Part shown: in pieces, positions 9,101 through 46,148 of the stretch | Numbering within the stretch: position 1 is the stretch's first letter | Layout of the letters: every line of letters begins with the position of its first letter | Virus record (IMG/VR): IMGVR_UViG_3300012931_000667 | Span: 13,901 to 77,900 of that record | DNA from: a virus | Direction: 5' to 3' (one strand) | Length of the DNA stretch: 64,000 nucleotides | The notes under the pieces: model-generated | Databases searched by the model: none | What the model saw: the letters and a program-made list of their open reading frames with translations, nothing else | What the model was told of the DNA's origin: nothing | Translations under genes and position numbers: made by a program

Positions 9101-12100
9101 TAGGACTCTCATATTTATCATGAAAATGTTTTATTGTCAAGCCTAATCCAAGTTCATGTCTATTCTTCCCCCACTTTAACCCAAAGCCTAATATAGGGAA
9201 AATTACAGCATTATCACTATAGGTTTCTATATATTTATTTTTCATTTAGTAGTATCCCTAATAAATCAAATCTTATTGCACTTCTAAATGAAGGAATTTC
9301 TTGTTGATTATTAATATAATTATCCATAACAAATTTATGGAACAAATCACAAAAAGTTTTATGATCATCAACAAACTTTTGAGTTAAAGTAATCCCTTCT
9401 AGTATTACTTCAATTCCCATTAACCCTATTGAAAGAAATTGATCTTTAGACAATGACACAATATAGTTTAAACAATCTTCTATTTGCTCACTATTTATAT
9501 AATTACCTATTTTTTTAATTATATCCCATGCTTCATCAGATATATTATCATAAGTATGCATTAATTATTTTCCTTTCTTGTTAACACTTTTAATATATTA
9601 TCAACTTTTTTATCTATCTGTACATTACTTCCCATAGGCCAATATTCTTTTAGTAATAGGGATATTGTAAGTTTTAAGTCATTCTCATCAATAATGATCA
9701 TTTTTCTTCTACTTCTTCTTCTAACACTTCTATAGTAATCTTTATTCTTCTACCCTTATAGTTATTTTCAATAAAATTATCAATATTATCATCATCTATA
9801 TAAAGTCCTTTATCTACATCTGACCAATTACCATATGGATTTCTTCTTACTAATCCATCTAAAGTAGTACTACCAAATTTATAAATAATACTCATTTAGG
9901 ATAATCCTCCTATCCTATTAATTCTACCCAACAATTCTTTTTACCATTCCATTCACCATCTAATGATGCATCTGCCCAACTATACAAATTTTTCATTGCA
10001 TCATCAAAGTTTTCTATTTCACTACCATCATCATTTGATGAAGTAGCAATAATATTAAAATCATCAATAAGAAATTGAATATCTTCATTTAATTTATTAG
10101 GATCAAAAACACTTAGTTTATCAATTAGTACTTTAGCTAATTGTTGAACTGTTATTTCATGGTTTTTGCATTGTTTCCATTCAATACTAATATCTAATTT
10201 TCTAACCCATTGTGCCATTTTATTTACTCCTTTACTTCTTCATAATTAAAGTTTTCATTACCATATTCACCTAGATACCATACTTTATTTAATTCTTTTA
10301 CCTTACTTTCAGCTTCTTTTAAATTATATAAAGTTGCATCTTTTTTATTTATATAACCTCCATTTGTTCTTTCCCATTCACCTTCTTGATAATACCTTTT
10401 ATCCCAACCAATTTCATCACAAGTATCTTTATATATTCTATACTTTTTCATTTACCTTCTCCTTATCTCTTAATTAAATATTCTAATTCTACTATTAATG
10501 CTTCATTTCTTTCATATGCTGTAGAATGATGATTAGGATACCTAGTATACAGATTAGGAGAATAAATTATATTATTCATCATACCATAAATTCCCCACCA
10601 ATACTGTATATCAGGATATCTCTTATTATACTCTGGATCACCATTTACAAATCCATATTTTTTAAGTATATTATCAATATAATCATAAATAGGTGTAGAC
10701 CATTCTTTTAGTCCATCATAAAAACCTTGATGCGAAGCTGTAGATCGTAAACTATAGCAAATTGATAATAGCCCTTGTACATCTTTTATAGCATTATTAG
10801 AAACATTTACTATTTTCTTTGTTTCGTTAGTATCATACATATAACTCATTTAAATATTTCCTTTCCTAATATCACTTTCATTTTTTTCATAATCCATTTA
10901 TTTTTCACATCTTCTAGATATTTATCATAATCATTACCCATTTTTATATAAAAATAATATTCAATACTACTACTGATTTCAGTTAAATAACTATCAGGTA
11001 ACTCTAGTATTAACTCAAATCTTAATCCTTTTCTATATCCATGAAAGTTATCACCATCATAAATAGATATATTTGCTATCAATTTATCATCATAAATATA
11101 GTTTATACTTATACAATTATTATCAAAAGTAGACCAGGTATCAATAATAGTATAATCTATGGGAGATTCCCAATCATAGATATCCTCTTCATGCTTTTTC
11201 TCAAGTATTATAGCATTATTATTTTTTAGTAATTCTACTATTGTGCTAATGTTATTCCAATTATTAGAATCCTTGTATTGAATAGGAGCAAAAGTAAGCA
11301 TTTTTTTCAGAGTAAGAATGTCAATCTTTTTATCTTCCATATAATTTCCCCTTATTTATTTCTATTAATTTCTACAGCACAATCATTACCACCAAAATAA
11401 GAATAAAACACCTGCTTATTATTAATAGAAACTGTCACTCTGCCACCATCATAAAAAAATCCTAAATAATTTATTTTATCTGGTAAATTAATACTTTTTT
11501 CTTCATTATAACAATCATCTTTCCAATTATTAAAAATTAGTTTACTATTCCCATTTTCTTCTTCATTAACTTTTTCCCATGATATAGAGTTTTCATTATG
11601 AATTATTTTATATATATCCCATTTTTTATGCATGGTGTCTCTATATTGTTTAGCACCTTCTAATGAAAATGTAGAAGCATACATAAAAGTAGTATCAGAA
11701 GGATATCCACCTGATGTCTCATCAATACGAATAAAATAATTAGTAGCAGAATCTTTTAATATATACTTATCTTCCATATTATTTTTCTCCTTTACCAAAT
11801 ATGTTCAGAAAATAAACAAGGATGCCAATTTTCTTTTACTATTTCTATTCCTTTTATTTTTGTGTAATTTTCATTCCATTTTTGTTCTGAACATTGATTA
11901 TAATTGAAAGCTTCATAGTATGCTTCTTCTCTAGTTAAAAACTGTAGACTATCATTAATAAACCCTTGTATACAATCTATATGTAATTTTTGTACTACTT
12001 CCCATTCTACACCAGCTTTTCTGTATAGGTCTATTAAATTCTTAAAACAAGCTGAATGATTATTTCCTACAAAAACTCTACTATCTACTAATTTAATTGC

Positions 12101-13933
12101 GGCTGATACTATCATATAAAATTACTTTTTCATTATCAGGAGCATATTGTTTTTTTTCTTCTTCTGTCCAATCAAACTTAATCATTTATTTCTTCTCCTT
12201 TTTTACAATTTCAATCTTATTAATAACAGATATGTCATAAACATCATAAAAGGTATTATCCTTACCCCACCACCAAGCAGTAGCTTTTTCATCTGCTAAA
12301 TACTCTGATTTTGCTTTAATAAAAATTGAACTAATAAAATCTTGTGTGTCATGTCTATAAAAAGATACCTTATACTCATATCCAAAAATTCTATGGTAAA
12401 TTAACTTAAAAAACTGTGTAGGATGCTTTGTATATTTCTTAATCTCATTCTTTATAATTATATATTTATAATTTACTTCTTTTCTTTCTACAGCATACAC
12501 AAACCATAACCATTTAAATACATACTGTCCTCTATCAGGACTCCATGACATACATGGCATATAATGAGGAAAGATATAGAATTTGCCATTAGGGTAAAAC
12601 CTAAATTTAATTTCATTATTACCAGGACGATTATCAAATTTAATCTTCATGTTCTTCCTCTTTTAAGGTAGTCAATAGTAAATTACAAGCTTCATCATCA
12701 GTAAGAACTAATTGATTATATTCTTTCATATCTTCAAAAGGTACAGGTTCTCTTATTTTTTTAATTAATTTCATTGCTTTGTTTCTATTCATCTATTTTC
12801 CTTTGACTACTATTACATTATGGGTATAATCATAAATAACATCTATTACCTCTGTAGCAGGAGTATAACCCATGAATACTTTTTCTCCTATATGAGGAAT
12901 ATATGAAGGATTTTCTATTACTCTTGCTTTTCTAGTATCACTATCAATAGGAAGGGATAATAAAACATCTATATCATCATAGTATACATCAAGTAAAATC
13001 ATTGTCATTTGATACTCCTTAATCATCACTCATTTGAACACAATTACAATTAGGACAAGCAAGTAAAGCTACTCTATGTTCTCCCCCATGATAGCTACTA
13101 TTATCTACTAAAAAAGTTCCATTAATATGTATAAATTTTTTCTTATGATCCTGCATATTACTAATTTTTAAAGCTAATACATTATCATCTTTTTCTTCCC
13201 AATCATGAACATAAAAATAATGGCAAACAGGACAAGTAGTCATATATTTCTCCTATATTTTCTTTAATTCTACATACTTCTTTAGTACTTCTACTATATT
13301 TTTAGGATTACTAAAACCAGCTTGAACCATTTCCAATGATATTGATTCAAATTTCTTTATTTGCTTATATTGAATTAATGAAGCTTTTAATGCAGGAAGA
13401 AAGTCTATGTAGTCTTCTTCTTTTCCAGTATACATCATTATAGGTCGAATATCCATCATTTTGTCAAGAGGATTATTAGTAGTTACCATAGATAAATCAA
13501 TTCCCATTTTTTCAGCTTTTGATCTACGTCTACCCTCTTGCATAGCCTTTTTTTGTGCTTCAGATACTATCCTCCCCTTTCGCTTATCAGCTTTAGGAAG
13601 AGTAGGAGCATTAGGCATAGTAATTGTTTGAATTATAGATTCAGTATGGTATTCTAATACAGATACTTTGGGCTTATTTTTGCTTCCTTTAGGTCTTAAC
13701 ATTTAATTCTCCTTATGTACTGTCATTAGTATATACTTAGGACCATCATGACTATGATCAGCAAAGAAAGCATAAGCTTTTCTATTACCAATATCATTTT
13801 CCATTTTTGCCATTTGTCGTAGTCCTGATGGATATGAAGCACAAAGTAGTTTAGGGTATAGATTTCTTTTTTTAGCATCAGTAAGAAAGGAATAAAGTAC
13901 ATCAATGTTGTTAGTAAAAATCATACCATTCAT
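6114..13933 (-). other. cluster of ~25 small hypothetical phage ORFs, likely early/accessory region
   Basis: Dense co-oriented short ORFs with AGGA/GGAG ribosome-binding sites. Some carry CxxC pairs (7099-7356, 13019-13243); 13253-13702 starts with an AT-hook-like RPKGSKNK. Confidence 0.7.
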
Positions 13934-30937: not shown

Positions 30938-32005
30938 TTATTTATTGACTAGTTTACTAGAATAAAGGTATTCATTATAAATCCTATTTATAACAACACA
31001 AAAAATATTTAGATCACTATTTTCATAAATTGTAATTGTATCTTCTGGTTTCCATGAAAAAATTTTTAAGGCAGATACAATTAAATCAATATTAAAAGAA
31101 AACTCTATTTCTCCAAAGAAAGAATCCATGTCTAATTCACAATTTTTGTTATTAACTTCTATTTTAACTTTAGTATCCTTTATAGTAAGAGAAGCTTTAT
31201 TGTTAACTTCTTTAGCATAAAACCTTAGATAGTCAAGTTTAGAAATAAAATTTATAACATTAACAGTAAAGTAATTAGAACTAAATAATTTTTTTTGTAA
31301 AGAAGTAAATTTTTCTTCAAATAAAGGAAGTACAGATACCTTATCCACAGTAGCATAAATAATATCTATATTAGAGCTAGATACATAAATAGAGTTTTCT
31401 TGTCGAGAAATATTAATAGGATAATTAGTATACTTTAATAAATCAATTAATCCACAAGGTAAAATTAATTCTTCTATTGGATTATCAAATATAAAGTCAT
31501 TAATATAGATACGATACATTGAAGAACTAAATATCTTATTATTTTTTATAAAGGTAAACTTTGCTTGATTATTTTTATCTTCTGCATTAGTAAATCTATT
31601 TGCTACTACTAATTGATTATATTGATCTTTATTCTCAATACAATAATTATATTCACTTTTATTATTAAATAATTCCTTTAAAGATTCATACATATATGAT
31701 TGACTACTATCACTATTAAAAATTCCATGTATATTAGTATCTGTATTATACTTATTATTAGAATCAATCTCTACTTTTGATGAGTAGGGAATTAAATGTA
31801 ATAAGTCTGCTTTATTTAAAGTCAATACTACATCATTTTTAATTTCTTGTTCTGTTGCTTCTAAATTAATATTAATTCTAATAAACTTATTATCATCATT
31901 AATATATAATGCTTTTTCAACAATTGATATTAAACATGTTGGTGTTTCTTTACCAATAGATAATAATGAATCAAAACTCTTTAATGATGTTAAATCTAAA
32001 ATCAT
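30938..32005 (-). CDS. probable DNA sliding clamp (beta-clamp-like)
   Basis: 355 aa; segments SSSMYRI and EFSFNIDLIVSAL resemble beta-clamp ATDGHRL and IGFNxxYLLDAL; a DnaX-like loader is encoded in the window. Confidence 0.55.
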   Translation of the reverse strand: MILDLTSLKSFDSLLSIGKETPTCLISIVEKALYINDDNKFIRININLEATEQEIKNDVVLTLNKADLLHLIPYSSKVEIDSNNKYNTDTNIHGIFNSDSSQSYMYESLKELFNNKSEYNYCIENKDQYNQLVVANRFTNAEDKNNQAKFTFIKNNKIFSSSMYRIYINDFIFDNPIEELILPCGLIDLLKYTNYPINISRQENSIYVSSSNIDIIYATVDKVSVLPLFEEKFTSLQKKLFSSNYFTVNVINFISKLDYLRFYAKEVNNKASLTIKDTKVKIEVNNKNCELDMDSFFGEIEFSFNIDLIVSALKIFSWKPEDTITIYENSDLNIFCVVINRIYNEYLYSSKLVNK

Positions 32006-32017
32006 AGTAATCCTTTT

Positions 32018-32031
32018 TAGTTAATAACTAT
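32018..32031. promoter_or_regulatory. back-to-back TAACTA(T) motifs between divergent genes
   Basis: TAGTTA-A-TAACTAT palindrome between the starts at 32005 (-) and 32055 (+). Confidence 0.5.
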
Positions 32032-32054
32032 TTTTAATATAGTAGGATAGTATC

Positions 32055-32492
32055 ATGGATCAAAACGTTTGTCAAGATAGTACATTAGAAAAATTAGAAT
32101 CTATTAAAGAAAATTTAATATTCATTGTTTGTCGTCCTTATAAAGAAAATTACTATTATTATTCAATCAATAATGTTGATAACTACAAAGTAATTGATAA
32201 ATATGAATTAAAAAAAATAATTTCATTTCTAGATGCTAAAGATATCAATCAACTAGAAGTAATAGTTACAAGATTTAAAGCATTTGTTTATATTCATGAA
32301 AAAAATATCATAAAAGAATTAGTATTAAATGAAGATGAAGCTATAGAGCAAATATTAAAAGATGAAATAATAATTAGTACTATGAAAAAAGAAGCTAATA
32401 AAAAAGATACAACAAATAAGTATGAAGATATACTAAATTCAATTAAAAAGAAATTGAAGCACACAAAAACTATTATTAAGAAATTTAATTAG
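32055..32492 (+). CDS. hypothetical protein
   Basis: 145-aa ORF with AGGA SD. Confidence 0.6.
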   Translation: MDQNVCQDSTLEKLESIKENLIFIVCRPYKENYYYYSINNVDNYKVIDKYELKKIISFLDAKDINQLEVIVTRFKAFVYIHEKNIIKELVLNEDEAIEQILKDEIIISTMKKEANKKDTTNKYEDILNSIKKKLKHTKTIIKKFN

Positions 32493-32889
32493 TTAATCTT
32501 ATTTTATTAAATTCAATAAACTTGGTATTCTCTAATTTTTTTGTACTACTTTTTTTCTTTGTTTTCCTTTTTAGGGGAACAACAAAATCATAACTAAATG
32601 GAATAATATTACATTTATATAAATTTGATGTTCCTTCTCTGTAGGTCTTACTTATCCATCCATATAGTTCTAAACGTTTTAATGATCTAAAAACAGTTGA
32701 TCTAGAAACAAAGGTATCATTAACAATAGTAGATATCCTAGGAAAAGAGTATGAACTTAATCCTTGACGTATTTTTAAGTATGTATAAATGCGAATATCA
32801 TTTAGATTTAATCTTCTATCTTGAATAAGAGAAATAGGAATAGCACCAGTTTCTATAGAATTAATTATGCTTCCTTTTTTATCCACCAT
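32485..32889 (-). CDS. winged-helix/HTH DNA-binding protein (replication-initiator-like N-terminal domain)
   Basis: IYTYL...SFPRISTI...VSRSTVFRSLKRLELYGWI...TSNLY. Confidence 0.8.
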   Translation of the reverse strand: MVDKKGSIINSIETGAIPISLIQDRRLNLNDIRIYTYLKIRQGLSSYSFPRISTIVNDTFVSRSTVFRSLKRLELYGWISKTYREGTSNLYKCNIIPFSYDFVVPLKRKTKKKSSTKKLENTKFIEFNKIRLTN

Positions 32890-33291
32890 GATTATTTACC
32901 TACTTCTATTTTGTTTCAATTAGTATATTAGTCATAAATAGTACTTTATGTCAAGTAGGGTCAATGAGTGTCAAAACAGTGAAAAAGTGTCAGTAGTGAC
33001 ACCCATAATAATTACATTAAGGAAGATTTCAATCACTTCGTTCTTGAAATCCAAATCATTGAAAGGAAATCTAGTTACTAATTGTATGTTCAGTCGCTTC
33101 GCTCCTTCACATACAATTAGTAACTATCACAATTTCGCTTCGCTCAATTGCTCATATTATAATTTGATTAATACTAAATTAATTATATAATATTTAATTT
33201 TAATTTAATATAAATAATGAAAAGGAATATTAAAGAGGAGGACTACTTGACAAAGAATCTACTTCATGTTATTAGTAATCTCTAATTATAA
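32890..33291. other. strand-switch intergenic region, candidate replication origin
   Basis: Clustered GTCA/TGAC repeats, three stem-loops with TCRCTTCGYTC loops, AT-rich tract, divergent TTGACA boxes (32954-32949 minus; 33247-33252 plus). Confidence 0.55.
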
Positions 33292-34656
33292 TTGAAATAT
33301 AATAAAAAAAGGAATATTCTATTGATAATCCCATCAAAGTTTTCAAATTTAGATTTAAGTGATCCTATTTATAGTTATGCTTTAGATCAATTAGTAAATA
33401 CTAATAATAATCTAAATATAATAGGTTCAGCAGGAACAGGAAAAAGTATATTATTATCTCTTGCTTATGATATGTTAAAAAATCAAGGAAAAAATGTAGT
33501 AGTAGTTTGTCCTACTGGAATTGCTTCTTTTAATTTACAAAAAAAAGGTATTCCTGCTGTAACAATTCATAGCTTTTTTAAACTTCCTCCTGCTTCAGTA
33601 TATAGTTCTGGAATGATTCATATTAATAATAATTTGTATGAATTAATGAATAATATAGATGTATTAATTATAGATGAAGTTTCATTTATGAATTGTTCAT
33701 TATTAGATTTTATACATGAATTACTATTAAACTATAGGTCAAAACAAGAACAAAATATTCCTAGAATGATTCTTTTTGGAGATCCTTTACAATTAGAGTC
33801 TCCAATGGATAAGAAAGATAAAGCAGTAATGAAATATTTTGATGAATTATATGAAGGAAAAATTAATTATTTTAATGCTAACTCTTTTAGAGACTATGGA
33901 TACAAAGTAATTCAACTAACTAAGATATTTAGACAGTCTAATGAAGTATATCAAAGTATTTTTAATCGTGTACGTCAAGGTACACAAACTAATGAGGATT
34001 TAATAATACTAAATGAGCAAGTAATAAGTGAAGAAGAATATTTTAAAAGAAATGAAATGTATTTATATCTCTCCCCTACTAATGCTGGTGCAGATTTAGT
34101 AAATAAAAGTTACTATGATATTCTTGAAGGTAGACCAAGAATGTATGAAACATATATTCATGGTGATGTTGATTTAAGTAAAAAGAAGAATATTCATGAA
34201 AGAATTTACTTAAAAAAAGATTGTCAAGTTATGTGTTTATTTAATGCTCCTGATGGATCATATGTAAATGGAACTTTAGCTAAAGTAACAAAATTAAATG
34301 ATGATGATGTAGAAGCCATAAAAGAAAATGGTGAAATTATTACTATTGGTAGGCATCAACTACAAGATTACAAGTATGATTATAATGAAATTACAAAACA
34401 AATTACATTAAATAAATGTGGAGATATTGATACATTAGGATGTACATTAGGATTTAGCTTGACCTACCATAAAACACAATCTATGAGTTTAGATACCTAT
34501 TATATAGACTTAGCGAAAGGAATGTTTGCTAATGGAATGTTATATGTAGCAATTAGCAGAGCTGTTGATTTTACTAAAGTAGGATTATCTAGACCTTTAG
34601 CACATCAGGATGTAATTGTGTCAAATGAAGCACTTGAATTTTTAGGTACTATCTAA
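33292..34656 (+). CDS. Pif1/RecD-like SF1B DNA helicase
   Basis: GSAGTGKS, PTGIA, TIHSFF, IIDEVS, FGDPLQL, LTKIFRQ, TYHKTQSMS, YVAISR. Confidence 0.92.
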   Translation: MKYNKKRNILLIIPSKFSNLDLSDPIYSYALDQLVNTNNNLNIIGSAGTGKSILLSLAYDMLKNQGKNVVVVCPTGIASFNLQKKGIPAVTIHSFFKLPPASVYSSGMIHINNNLYELMNNIDVLIIDEVSFMNCSLLDFIHELLLNYRSKQEQNIPRMILFGDPLQLESPMDKKDKAVMKYFDELYEGKINYFNANSFRDYGYKVIQLTKIFRQSNEVYQSIFNRVRQGTQTNEDLIILNEQVISEEEYFKRNEMYLYLSPTNAGADLVNKSYYDILEGRPRMYETYIHGDVDLSKKKNIHERIYLKKDCQVMCLFNAPDGSYVNGTLAKVTKLNDDDVEAIKENGEIITIGRHQLQDYKYDYNEITKQITLNKCGDIDTLGCTLGFSLTYHKTQSMSLDTYYIDLAKGMFANGMLYVAISRAVDFTKVGLSRPLAHQDVIVSNEALEFLGTI

Positions 34657-34772
34657 ATTAAGAGGACAGTAGGTTGACGCCTATTGCTAAAATTATTCCA
34701 GTTTTAGCTAACTCTTTTATTTTTTTTAACTATATAAAATAAAGTTGCGTCAACAACTTAAAAGGAAAAATT
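34657..34772 (+). ncRNA. structured leader copy B (kissing loops UUGACG/CGUCAA)
   Basis: AAGAG-GA-CAGTAGG[TTGACG]CCTATTG-CTAAAATT[ATTCC]AGTTTTAG-CTAA-CTCTT..TAACTAT..AAGTTG[CGTCAA]CAACTT-AAAAGG..ATG. Confidence 0.85.
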
Positions 34773-35624
34773 ATGGAAGAAAAAGTATTGTTACTTGAAG
34801 ATCGTAGATTTTATGTTTATATTTATCTAGACCCTAGAAAACCTGGAAATTACAACTATGGTGAATACCATTTTGATTTTGAACCTTTTTATGTTGGTAA
34901 AGGAAGTGGATATAGAGCTTGGAGTCATTTGCAATCTTATATGTTAAAAGAAACTGGAAATTTAAGAATTAATAAATTTAGAAAAATTATTAATAATGGA
35001 TATAAAATAGAACCTATAATAATTAAAACTAATATTTTAGAAAAAGAATCTTTTTATTATGAAAAATTATTAATTAAATTGATAGGAAGATATGATAAAA
35101 ATAAAGGACCATTAGTTAATCAAACAGATGGTGGAGAGGGTACTTGTGGAACTATTTTTTCTAAAGAAGCTATAGAAAAAATGAGACAAGCTAATTTAGG
35201 TAGAAGATATTCCAATGAAATTAATAAGAAAAAAGGAAGAAAAGGAAGATTAGTTTCAGAGGAAACTAAAGAAAAACATAAACAATATAAAGTTTCTGAA
35301 GAAGTAAAGAGAAAACAATCTAAAAATAAAGAAGGAAATAAAAATCCTAGATTTGGAAAACCAGCAATGAATAGAGTTAAAGTTATTTATGTAAATGAGA
35401 ATAAAGAATTTAATTCTTTATTAGAAGCTGGAGAGTACACTAATAGGTGTTCAAGTGATATTCACAAATGTTGTTCTGGAAAAGTAAAATCAATAGGAAG
35501 AAATAGTGGAAATAAATTTTATTTTATGTATGTATCAACTTATATTAGTTTATCTAATGAAGAAAAAAAACAATTATTATCTAATTTTGATTTAACACAA
35601 CAATTTATCTTAAACCATATATAA
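34773..35624 (+). CDS. free-standing GIY-YIG-family endonuclease (FYVY...FYVGKG subtype) with NUMOD-type repeats
   Basis: FYVYIYLDPR...PFYVGKGSGYRA, E..LIK.IGR, LVNQTDGGEG, SEETKEK repeats. Confidence 0.88.
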   Translation: MEEKVLLLEDRRFYVYIYLDPRKPGNYNYGEYHFDFEPFYVGKGSGYRAWSHLQSYMLKETGNLRINKFRKIINNGYKIEPIIIKTNILEKESFYYEKLLIKLIGRYDKNKGPLVNQTDGGEGTCGTIFSKEAIEKMRQANLGRRYSNEINKKKGRKGRLVSEETKEKHKQYKVSEEVKRKQSKNKEGNKNPRFGKPAMNRVKVIYVNENKEFNSLLEAGEYTNRCSSDIHKCCSGKVKSIGRNSGNKFYFMYVSTYISLSNEEKKQLLSNFDLTQQFILNHI

Positions 35625-35676
35625 TAATTACCTAAATAAAAATTTTAATTATAAAATATAAGGAGAATAAATAATA

Positions 35677-36249
35677 ATGCATTTTAACGATTATCAGCGA
35701 GAGGCTAGGAAGACTGCAATCTATCCTAAAGAATATAAAATAGTTTATCCTTCATTTGGATTGATGGATGAGTTTACTGAATTTGTAGAAAAAGAAGAAG
35801 ATAGATTTATTAATCATGTTAAAGATATTGAAATTGTAAAAGAAATATTCGATACTTTTTGGTATATTTCTAATTTAATATCTGATATTTATGAAAATAA
35901 AAATTGGAATTATAACTTATATAATGTATTTCCTGATAGTGAAATTGATATTAAAGAATATATAATAGAGAATACTTCAGATATTGACAAATGGGATAAT
36001 CATACTATTTTTAGAAAGATAGGACAAATACAAGGTAAAATAAAAAAGTTATTAAGAAAAGATTATACTGAACTTTCTACAGAAACAATAAATTTTATTA
36101 TTAATAATATTAAATATATAGGTTACTACTTAATTGATAAAGCTAATATATATGGATATGAAATAGAGGATGGATTACAATTGAATATTGATAAGCTTAA
36201 AGATAGACAGGAACGTGGAGTATTAAAAGGGAATGGCGATAATAGATAA
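35677..36249 (+). CDS. MazG-like NTP pyrophosphohydrolase
   Basis: FNDYQ..A.KTAIYP, GLMDE..E, KEIFD..WY, NIDKL.DRQERGVLKGNGDNR. Confidence 0.85.
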   Translation: MHFNDYQREARKTAIYPKEYKIVYPSFGLMDEFTEFVEKEEDRFINHVKDIEIVKEIFDTFWYISNLISDIYENKNWNYNLYNVFPDSEIDIKEYIIENTSDIDKWDNHTIFRKIGQIQGKIKKLLRKDYTELSTETINFIINNIKYIGYYLIDKANIYGYEIEDGLQLNIDKLKDRQERGVLKGNGDNR

Positions 36250-45380: not shown

Positions 45381-46148
45381 TTGAATACTGATGATACTAT
45401 ACTATGGTTTCCTCATTACAAGCCATGTACAAAATGTCAATCAGGGTTTATTATAAATGAAGGAAAAGCAACTAAATGTGAATGTAAAATAATGTATGAT
45501 ACTGAATTATTATTTATTAATGATTTAATTGATAGTAACCTACTACAAGTATTCTCTTCCGAAGCTCAATATACCTTTTTAAAAGAGTATACTATAGATT
45601 CATATAGAGGAATTGATAATAATAAAAATAAGGATAAAATAAATAAGTATATATCTAAATTTAATGATAAGTATAATAGTGTCAATCTATTTTTTAGTGG
45701 TGAACCAGGAACACAAAAAACTACACTAGCAAAATATATATTATGCTCATTATTAAGACAAAAAAAGAATGGGTATTACATAATTGCTAATGATTTATTT
45801 AATACATTAACTAACTCTGAAAGAAATGAAGAAGCTAGAGAAAAATTAAAAGAATTAATCACTAAGGATATATTAATAATTGATGAATTTGATGAAAGCA
45901 AAATTACATTATATAACTCTGATTGGAAACAAAAATTTATATTACCTTTTTTAAAGATAAGGTTAGAAACTGTAAGGAAAGCAACTATATTTATTTCAAA
46001 TAAACTACCTACTGAATTAGGAGAAAAATTTGATGGTGCTATTCAAGATTTAATAGTGAGAGAAACATCAGGTTCAGTATTAATTTTTAATGATAATTAT
46101 GCTAAATATAAAGATAATATAAAAATAAGTAGCATTTGGGACGATTAA
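45381..46148 (+). CDS. DnaC/IstB-like helicase loader ATPase
   Basis: CTKC...CEC Zn site, GEPGTQKT, LIIDEF, TIFISN; directly upstream of DnaB. Confidence 0.85.
   Translation: MNTDDTILWFPHYKPCTKCQSGFIINEGKATKCECKIMYDTELLFINDLIDSNLLQVFSSEAQYTFLKEYTIDSYRGIDNNKNKDKINKYISKFNDKYNSVNLFFSGEPGTQKTTLAKYILCSLLRQKKNGYYIIANDLFNTLTNSERNEEAREKLKELITKDILIIDEFDESKITLYNSDWKQKFILPFLKIRLETVRKATIFISNKLPTELGEKFDGAIQDLIVRETSGSVLIFNDNYAKYKDNIKISSIWDD

Follow-up and report, generated by a model that had tools for sequence, protein, structure and literature searches.

A candidate replication origin with G.A-braced DNA hairpins in a large phage contig from wetland metagenomes

Structured replication signals and the contig analysed

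The G4-type origin is a cluster of three stem-loops within ~130 nt, and the G-site of R1/R100 is a plasmid G-type ssi signal. N4 promoters combine specific flanking bases with a dedicated giant polymerase. In the oriV of RSF1010, an IncQ plasmid, RepC binds iterons, RepA unwinds the DNA and RepB' primes at the ssiA and ssiB hairpins, signals that act only once the helicase exposes single strands (PMC13037366, PMC8567376); ssiA is capped by the GAA mini-hairpin CCGAAGG (PMC13037366). For the primase-dependent complementary-strand origins of G4, St-1 and alpha3, it has been proposed that tips of the GCGNAGC/GCGNNAGC class escape coverage by single-strand-binding protein (SSB) and guide primase (PMC13037366). 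In the d(GCGNAGC) family, two G-C pairs close a GNA triloop with a sheared G.A pair, and the promoters of the N4 virion polymerase are template-strand hairpins with a 5-bp stem and a 3-nt purine loop (GGA/GAA, e.g. GCGGAGC) (PMC13037366).

We analysed a window of 64,000 nt, the whole stretch of DNA to which positions below refer, from an IMG/VR virus record that is 77.9 kb long, has a G+C content of 25% and lacks a terminal repeat. The sequencing runs that contain this contig are wetland metagenomes; comparing their contigs with this DNA gave only short unrelated pieces, none of them over the hairpins. CheckV places its completeness at ~39%; the full genome is probably ~200 kb and that of an uncultured phage. 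A 90.7-kb contig with an identical helicase is on record. Blastn of positions 31000-36000 against phage records gave zero matches, and scans of IMG/VR with the helicase and the helix-turn-helix (HTH) protein encoded on either side of the element gave zero close relatives.

The element occupies the gap at 32890-33321 and comprises three hairpins (H1 to H3), short repeats, a palindrome and an A/T tract (see the table). Its arrangement resembles that of RSF1010, with initiator-bound repeats (here candidate ones) beside hairpin-forming signals and an A/T-rich region. It differs in that ssiA and ssiB lie on complementary strands, whereas the three tips here share one polarity and are thus strand-specific stable hairpins. 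In addition, a RepB'-type primase was not found in the present fragment, and the stems, which reach 18 bp, exceed those of RSF1010 in length and have tandem G.A braces. The replicon, moreover, is a large phage rather than a small plasmid.

With G4-type origins and plasmid G-type ssi signals the locus shares stable hairpins whose mini-hairpin tips are of the GCGNAGC/GCGNNAGC class. The preliminary description of this DNA had taken GCGAAGC itself to be the known G4 origin motif, which has to be corrected, as G4 carries GCGAAAGC (PMC13037366). That motif stands in a single-stranded genome, whereas the GCGAAGC or ACGAAGT of the present locus stands in double-stranded DNA that needs opening first.

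Iteron-type theta origins (lambda ori, P1 oriR, SPP1 oriL, plasmid oriV) are similar in their short phased repeats, the adjoining A/T-rich unwinding element, the winged-helix initiator gene next door (initiator-like here) and possible autoregulation through repeats in the promoter. Classical examples, however, have no battery of long perfect hairpins with conserved tips, and the present repeats have cores of only 5-7 bp in a 10-bp phase and an unusually small initiator-like protein. N4 promoters share the GGA or GAA triloop mini-hairpins in DNA, but the stems here are of 5-18 bp and G.A-braced, and their orientation to the genes flips among relatives (loci L196 and L198).

Table. Features of the gap and its flanking genes, in window coordinates
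Feature	Position	Strand	Description and basis
Small winged-helix gene	32485-32889	-	134 aa, initiator-like; Pfam HTH_36, 8.9e-7
Predicted promoter of the winged-helix gene	32925-32954	-	TTGACA, 18 nt, TAATAT; consensus scan 10/12
GTCAA repeats, three	32950-32974		exact 10-bp phase, iteron- or operator-like; repeat family D4 and sequence
Palindrome	32987-33002		GTGTCA-N4-TGACAC; read from sequence
Hairpin H1	33025-33051	-	8-bp stem GATTTCAA / TTGAAATC, loop TCACTTCGTTC
Hairpin H2	33072-33126	-	perfect 18-bp stem, arms 33072-33089 / 33109-33126
Hairpin H3	33130-33150	-	5-bp stem CAATT / AATTG, loop TCGCTTCGCTC
A/T tract, candidate unwinding element	33154-33234		lowest-G+C 80-mer of the contig
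Predicted helicase promoter	33247-33275	+	cTTGACA, 17 nt, TATTAG; read from sequence
PIF1/Dda-like SF1 helicase gene	33322-34656	+	Pfam PIF1 8e-18, AAA_30; recorded protein 444 aa

Hairpin tips and their surroundings

The sequence at 33025-33150 matches exactly what the preliminary description had reported there, namely three stem-loops with a shared 11-nt loop. Its reading of H2 as a perfect 18-bp stem, of the minus-strand loops as GA-GCGAAGC-GA and GA-ACGAAGT-GA with a GAA triloop, and of an almost pure AT tract is likewise borne out. On the minus strand, the tip is GA-ACGAAGT-GA in H1 and GA-GCGAAGC-GA in H3, and the fold consists of tandem G.A pairs, two Watson-Crick pairs (G-C, or A-T/C-G) and a GAA triloop, so that the apparent loops of this strand are continuations of the helix. 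The arms of H2 enclose 19 nt that include TCGCTTCGCTC, and this "loop" folds on the minus strand as GA/GA, AG/CT, GA/GA, GC/GC and a GAA triloop.

From the long stem to the triloop, every non-Watson-Crick apposition on the minus strand is G.A (two in H1, four in H2 and two in H3), and the plus strand has pyrimidine mismatches at these positions. Because all mismatches are G.A on one strand and pyrimidine on the other, the pattern points to a folded single strand and not to a duplex protein site, and it favours one folded strand, here the minus strand, over a cruciform. H2 and H3, with GCGAAGC on the minus strand, conform to the d(GCGNAGC) sequence definition; the H1 tip ACGAAGT, in which A-T replaces G-C, falls outside the strict definition, as do the tips of the related loci L200 and L201. 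ViennaRNA leaves the H1 tip open; the unusual thermal and nuclease stability of d(GCGNAGC) mini-hairpins is not captured by nearest-neighbour folding (PMC13037366).

The hairpins stand out statistically within the contig. Allowing up to two mismatches, the 11-mer has three matches in 64 kb against 0.72 expected, all of them here and on one strand, and TCGCTTCGCTC / TCACTTCGTTC has zero further copies across the whole 77.9-kb contig. Scattering over the genome, which the preliminary description had held would speak against an origin, is therefore not seen in this contig: the motif occupies a single site in 78 kb. The heptamer GCGAAGC has three matches against 0.06 expected, two within the hairpins and the third at 10732. 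No other perfect inverted repeat in the contig (loop of up to 25 nt) is as long as H2, the runner-up being 14 bp, and in 20 shuffles the maximum was 10-15 bp against the 18 bp of H2. Folded as single-stranded DNA, positions 33015-33160 reach -25.6 kcal/mol on the minus strand (z -6.9) and -22.1 on the plus strand (z -5.8). An intrinsic terminator was considered and rejected, as 32400-33800 holds no terminator-like site on either strand.

A separate 9-mer, CAATTAGTA, occurs nine times in the window against two expected. Four copies (32917-32925, 33076-33084, 33114-33122 and 33388-33396) fall within 480 nt around the hairpins, two of them as part of the H2 arms, and the 9-mer may be a protein-binding site.

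On the left, the gap is bordered by the winged-helix gene, whose product matches the PHROG 'replication initiation protein' families 8102, 428 and 1032 and the DnaD-like family 7882. Word-based protein searches gave zero near or longer HTH relatives, and the full profile search alone found relatives: a profile of four homologues retrieved thousands. HTH_36 is present in all 60 of 60 long relatives, often in two or three copies, and DnaD_N in 48 of the 60; some match RepL, RP-C or Phage_rep_O. This homology marks the gene as initiator-like, of the HTH_36/DnaD_N type. Against an origin stands the shortness of the protein (134 aa), which could be a plain repressor.

Two features of iteron-type origins are present, phased direct repeats beside an initiator-like gene and an adjoining A/T-rich element. 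Positions 33155-33234 contain only 5 G/C in 80 nt, the minimum of the contig, and the duplex of the A/T tract is less stable than any other in the contig at window sizes of 40, 60 and 80 nt. The hairpins are predicted to lie between two back-to-back sigma-70-like promoters, both of which are consensus matches in A/T-rich DNA, with TTGACA not over-represented. For the winged-helix gene, the relative L116 has an identical ATGTCAAGTA / CTTGACAT box at the equivalent place. For the helicase gene, a scan offers an alternative promoter (TTGATT-16-TATAAT, 33164-33191), and TTGACT-17-TATAAT stands at the equivalent place in relatives.

The helicase on the right has closest relatives 64% and 61% identical. 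Replication and nucleotide metabolism are the theme of the neighbourhood, with genes for a 5'-3' exonuclease, a DnaC-like loader, a DnaB-like helicase, a clamp loader and a family A DNA polymerase in its wider reach; terminase or recombinase genes were not found near the hairpins. No Toprim, DnaG_N or Prim-Pol match to a primase was obtained in the fragment, which is 39% of the genome.

Two further observations concern this neighbourhood. A sub-threshold match to a DnaG-type CHC2 zinc ribbon (window 13226-13312, minus strand, E 5e-5) is in a reading frame broken by a single TAG, with no Toprim domain near it, and could be a remnant or split primase gene. Inside the minus-strand arm, a plus-strand gene of 145 aa (window 32055-32492) shares 8 nt with the 3' end of the winged-helix gene; it is kept in five relatives at 27-31% identity with 12 invariant residues, and has zero Pfam or PHROG matches.

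The position of the hairpins relative to the gene arms differs from that first proposed. They had been placed at the strand switch, but the switch of the two long arms is at ~32005/32055, and the hairpins lie between a minus-strand gene island (32485-32889) and the plus-strand arm. GC skew, suggested at the outset as a check, does flip in this region: its cumulative minimum is at 45913 of the genome (window ~32013), ~1 kb left of the hairpins. This minimum coincides with the gene-strand switch and is thus confounded with transcription direction, and since the contig is ~39% of the genome, whole-genome skew is unreadable and further origins may exist.

The initiator-like gene has for neighbours three very stable hairpins, a set of short repeats and the DNA that melts most readily in the contig, which together suggest a probable origin. 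On balance, we read the gap as an iteron-type phage replication origin in which the hairpins serve as single-strand initiation or helicase-loading signals, a reading in which we have somewhat more trust than doubt. The small winged-helix protein encoded next door would bind the phased GTCAA repeats and the palindrome, and this initiator, together with divergent transcription from both flanking promoters, would open the adjoining A/T tract. The exposed minus strand would then fold into the three hairpins, whose tips would be ultra-stable GNA-triloop mini-hairpins braced by tandem G.A. These would remain free of single-strand-binding protein and hold the bubble open, and would afterwards mark the place where priming begins or a helicase is loaded, much as single-strand initiation signals of the G4 or RSF1010 type do. 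The origin proposed in the preliminary description has thus gained context from the initiator-like gene, repeats, A/T tract, promoters and relatives; the primase that was not found in the fragment counts against it.

The equivalent site in distant relatives

Relatives' loci were retrieved by helicase-alignment scans; their helicases are 42-44% identical and the gene order is the same. A search of related phages had been recommended at the outset, and four distant relatives do keep long perfect hairpins at the equivalent site, with unrelated stems, tips of one structural class (GNA or TT) and repeats of their own. L116/L238 has a 14-bp stem with the tip GA-GCTTGC-GA on the minus strand, a GAA triloop on a second hairpin, direct repeats of 24 bp (three, counted in L116) and a perfect TTGACT-17-TATAAT helicase promoter. 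In L200/L201, an 18-bp stem encloses a 21-nt "loop" with G.A mismatches only, in which the tip is GA-ACGAAGT-GA, the H1 variant of the 11-mer; a further 11-bp stem with a GAA triloop and an A/T tract accompany it. The 12-bp stem of L196 encloses GAGCGGAGCGA and TAGCGTAGCGA, with GCGGAGC and GCGTAGC tips, and this hairpin is kept without an adjacent initiator gene. L198 combines a 16-bp stem and GCGTAGC tip with a further CCCC-GAA-GGGG hairpin, and three TGTCCAAAAAGTAC repeats (14 bp) plus a further copy, inverted, within the promoter; its initiator-like gene encodes 192 aa.

Across the window and the relatives, 19 of 20 non-Watson-Crick appositions are G.A by our own count, the exception being one T.G in L198. 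The middle base of the triloop varies among A, G and T and the flanking G and A are constant, which is the rule of the d(GCGNAGC) family. Over 400 nt, six substitutions separate L200 from L201, and two of the six form a compensatory change of a C-G to a T-A pair in the 18-bp stem. The 60-mer with the lowest duplex stability anywhere in the locus adjoins the hairpins in L116, L196 and L201 too. Two points count against the origin reading: L196 lacks an adjacent initiator gene, and neither the purine strand nor the hairpin-repeat order is constant across loci.

Two lineages show additional palindromic elements. Upstream of the hairpins, L200:26-68 and L201:3135-3177 hold two copies of a perfect palindrome on TCACCGGTGA (AGGTTCACCGGTGAACCT), which probably serves the winged-helix protein of that lineage as operator or iteron. 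In L196:3229-3310, a near-perfect TTGACA-18-TATAAT promoter and a double -35 of palindromic form (TGTCAAG-GCA-CTTGACA) both overlap the left arm of the hairpin.

The unrelated stems bear directly on the idea that the locus serves transcriptional control only, the winged-helix protein being an autorepressor or switch of divergent promoters and the inverted repeats palindromes or cruciforms that tune them. Relatives keep the structural rule of the tips, which would be meaningless to a duplex-binding protein, and this idea would also leave the least stable DNA and the replication-gene neighbourhood to be explained. We consider it improbable, although several details agree with it: the predicted promoter of the winged-helix gene has a -35 box that overlaps the GTCAA repeats, an inverted repeat copy lies inside the L198 promoter, the protein is a short single winged helix with weaker matches that include MarR and TrmB regulators, and CAATTAGTA, part of the H2 arms, is found again at 32917 and 33388. 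Classical iteron replicons combine autoregulation with origin function, and control of this kind is therefore compatible with an origin.

An RNA element is a second alternative, and an unlikely one. A minus-strand transcript from the A/T tract would carry the three G.A-braced hairpins as a leader, small RNA or primer RNA for the winged-helix gene region, in which they could stabilise the RNA 5' end or form a protein-binding platform. Tandem G.A pairs and GNA or CUUG tips are stable in RNA too, the initiator-like gene has the purine strand as its coding strand in the window, L116, L201 and L198, weak minus-strand promoter matches lie within the A/T tract, and the near-perfect promoter of L196 would start transcription at the first mini-hairpin. 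The best predicted promoters of the winged-helix gene, however, lie between the hairpins and the gene (window, L116 and L198), and the main mRNA should therefore exclude the hairpins. In L007, a locus found by the DNA motif only, the purine strand is opposite to the HTH gene. The stems are perfectly Watson-Crick over 5-18 bp with almost no G.U-type pairs, a terminator-like tail was not found, and Rfam has no family match, the sole match being a chance snoRNA (E 0.26).

Hairpin promoters of the N4 type, read by a phage RNA polymerase, would account for the GGA/GAA triloop mini-hairpins, of which L196 carries exactly the GCGGAGC form used in N4, and for the location of the window's purine hairpins on the template strand of the helicase arm. 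We regard them as highly improbable here. The geometry in L196 and L198 would drive transcription antisense through a conserved plus-strand gene, stems of 12-18 bp with extra G.A braces are unlike N4 promoters, and the motif is found at one site only in 78 kb. A search for a T7-like polymerase domain found none in the fragment, a search that matched no control genome either.

In L198, the unit of hairpins, repeats, promoter and initiator gene is inverted as a block and thus behaves as one module. Such inversion between relatives, and the capacity of inverted repeats to be recombination substrates, would suit another kind of DNA site, for packaging, recombination or inversion. The absence of a terminase or recombinase gene nearby and the replication and nucleotide metabolism genes around the hairpins speak against it, and chance is excluded by the 11-mer and inverted-repeat statistics together with the conservation in relatives; other DNA sites and chance, taken as one alternative, are very unlikely. 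Each of the RNA, control and N4 explanations fits fewer observations than the origin reading does.

Occurrence of the tip beyond this lineage

Paired exact 11-mers (TCGCTTCGCTC) spaced 15-45 nt apart occur in at least 115 IMG/VR contigs of 27-68% G+C. Among the matches listed, their flanks are complementary far above chance, with stems of at least 2 bp at 59% and of at least 4 bp at 20% of copies, and the 11-mers usually tip hairpins with unrelated stems, often next to short direct repeats and A/T-rich DNA. An unbiased collection of bare GCGAAGC 7-mer pairs from IMG/VR has GA flanks in only 4 of 251 cases and no enrichment of stems. Lacking GA flanks and stems, bare 7-mer pairs are thus mostly chance, and the link to hairpins is confined to the 11-mer class.

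Several loci show an architecture like that of the window's element. In L007, two 11-mer-tipped hairpins (hairpin region L007:2600-2790) are accompanied by an HTH_36/DnaD-like gene, two 22-bp repeats and an A/T tract. L073 (L073:7760-7960) has the 11-mer on two 15-bp hairpins, GCGCGAAGCGC on a third, and three direct repeats, with an A/T-rich stretch between, and hairpins stand beside short repeats in L021 (L021:5330-5660), L051, L095, L066, L100 and L048. At L018:3400-3530, an 11-mer hairpin pair is flanked on both sides by a ~26-bp direct repeat (GATAGTAATGAGAGGGGCGGAAGGAC). Compared with within-locus controls that took in coding as well as intergenic DNA, 66 sites have a higher A/T content (p 2e-6), a lower ORF coverage (p 2e-5) and a slight excess of repeats (p 0.04). 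A small hidden Markov model of the HTH family found no further member beside the motif in the 115 motif loci listed, save the seed member L007. Neighbour genes of the other motif loci are heterogeneous; some act in replication (helicase-like in L020, HTH and DNA polymerase in L029), and many have no assigned function.

A different distribution is seen in the giant-virus-like contigs L077, L084, L074 and L039 (36% G+C), where GGC-GAGCGAAGCGA-GCC hairpins occupy nearly every intergenic gap, in both orientations and often as opposed pairs. This dispersed form is perhaps a transcript-end or regulatory hairpin. Its dispersal indicates that the tip is a general ultra-stable cap, and the tip alone is therefore no origin marker.

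Long hairpins tipped by GA-braced GCGNAGC might be a widespread, so far unrecognised building block of dsDNA phage origins, a generalisation that we offer tentatively and with considerable doubt. If it is true, such hairpins would be independent of initiator specificity and, standing beside lineage-specific iterons, would provide SSB-refractory landmarks at which priming or helicase loading takes place. It would also explain the paired 11-mer hairpins of unrelated IMG/VR contigs (L007, L073, L021, L051 and others).

The origins of large uncultured phages are almost never mapped. The present locus offers a compact candidate of ~430 bp with a division of labour among initiator repeats, an unwinding tract and structured single-strand signals. 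Since its structural rule (a GNA triloop, two closing pairs, G.A braces and unrelated long stems) is searchable, it could help to locate the origins of metagenomic phages. If the hairpins are indeed priming or loading signals, the principle known from G4 and RSF1010 would extend from small replicons to large dsDNA phages.
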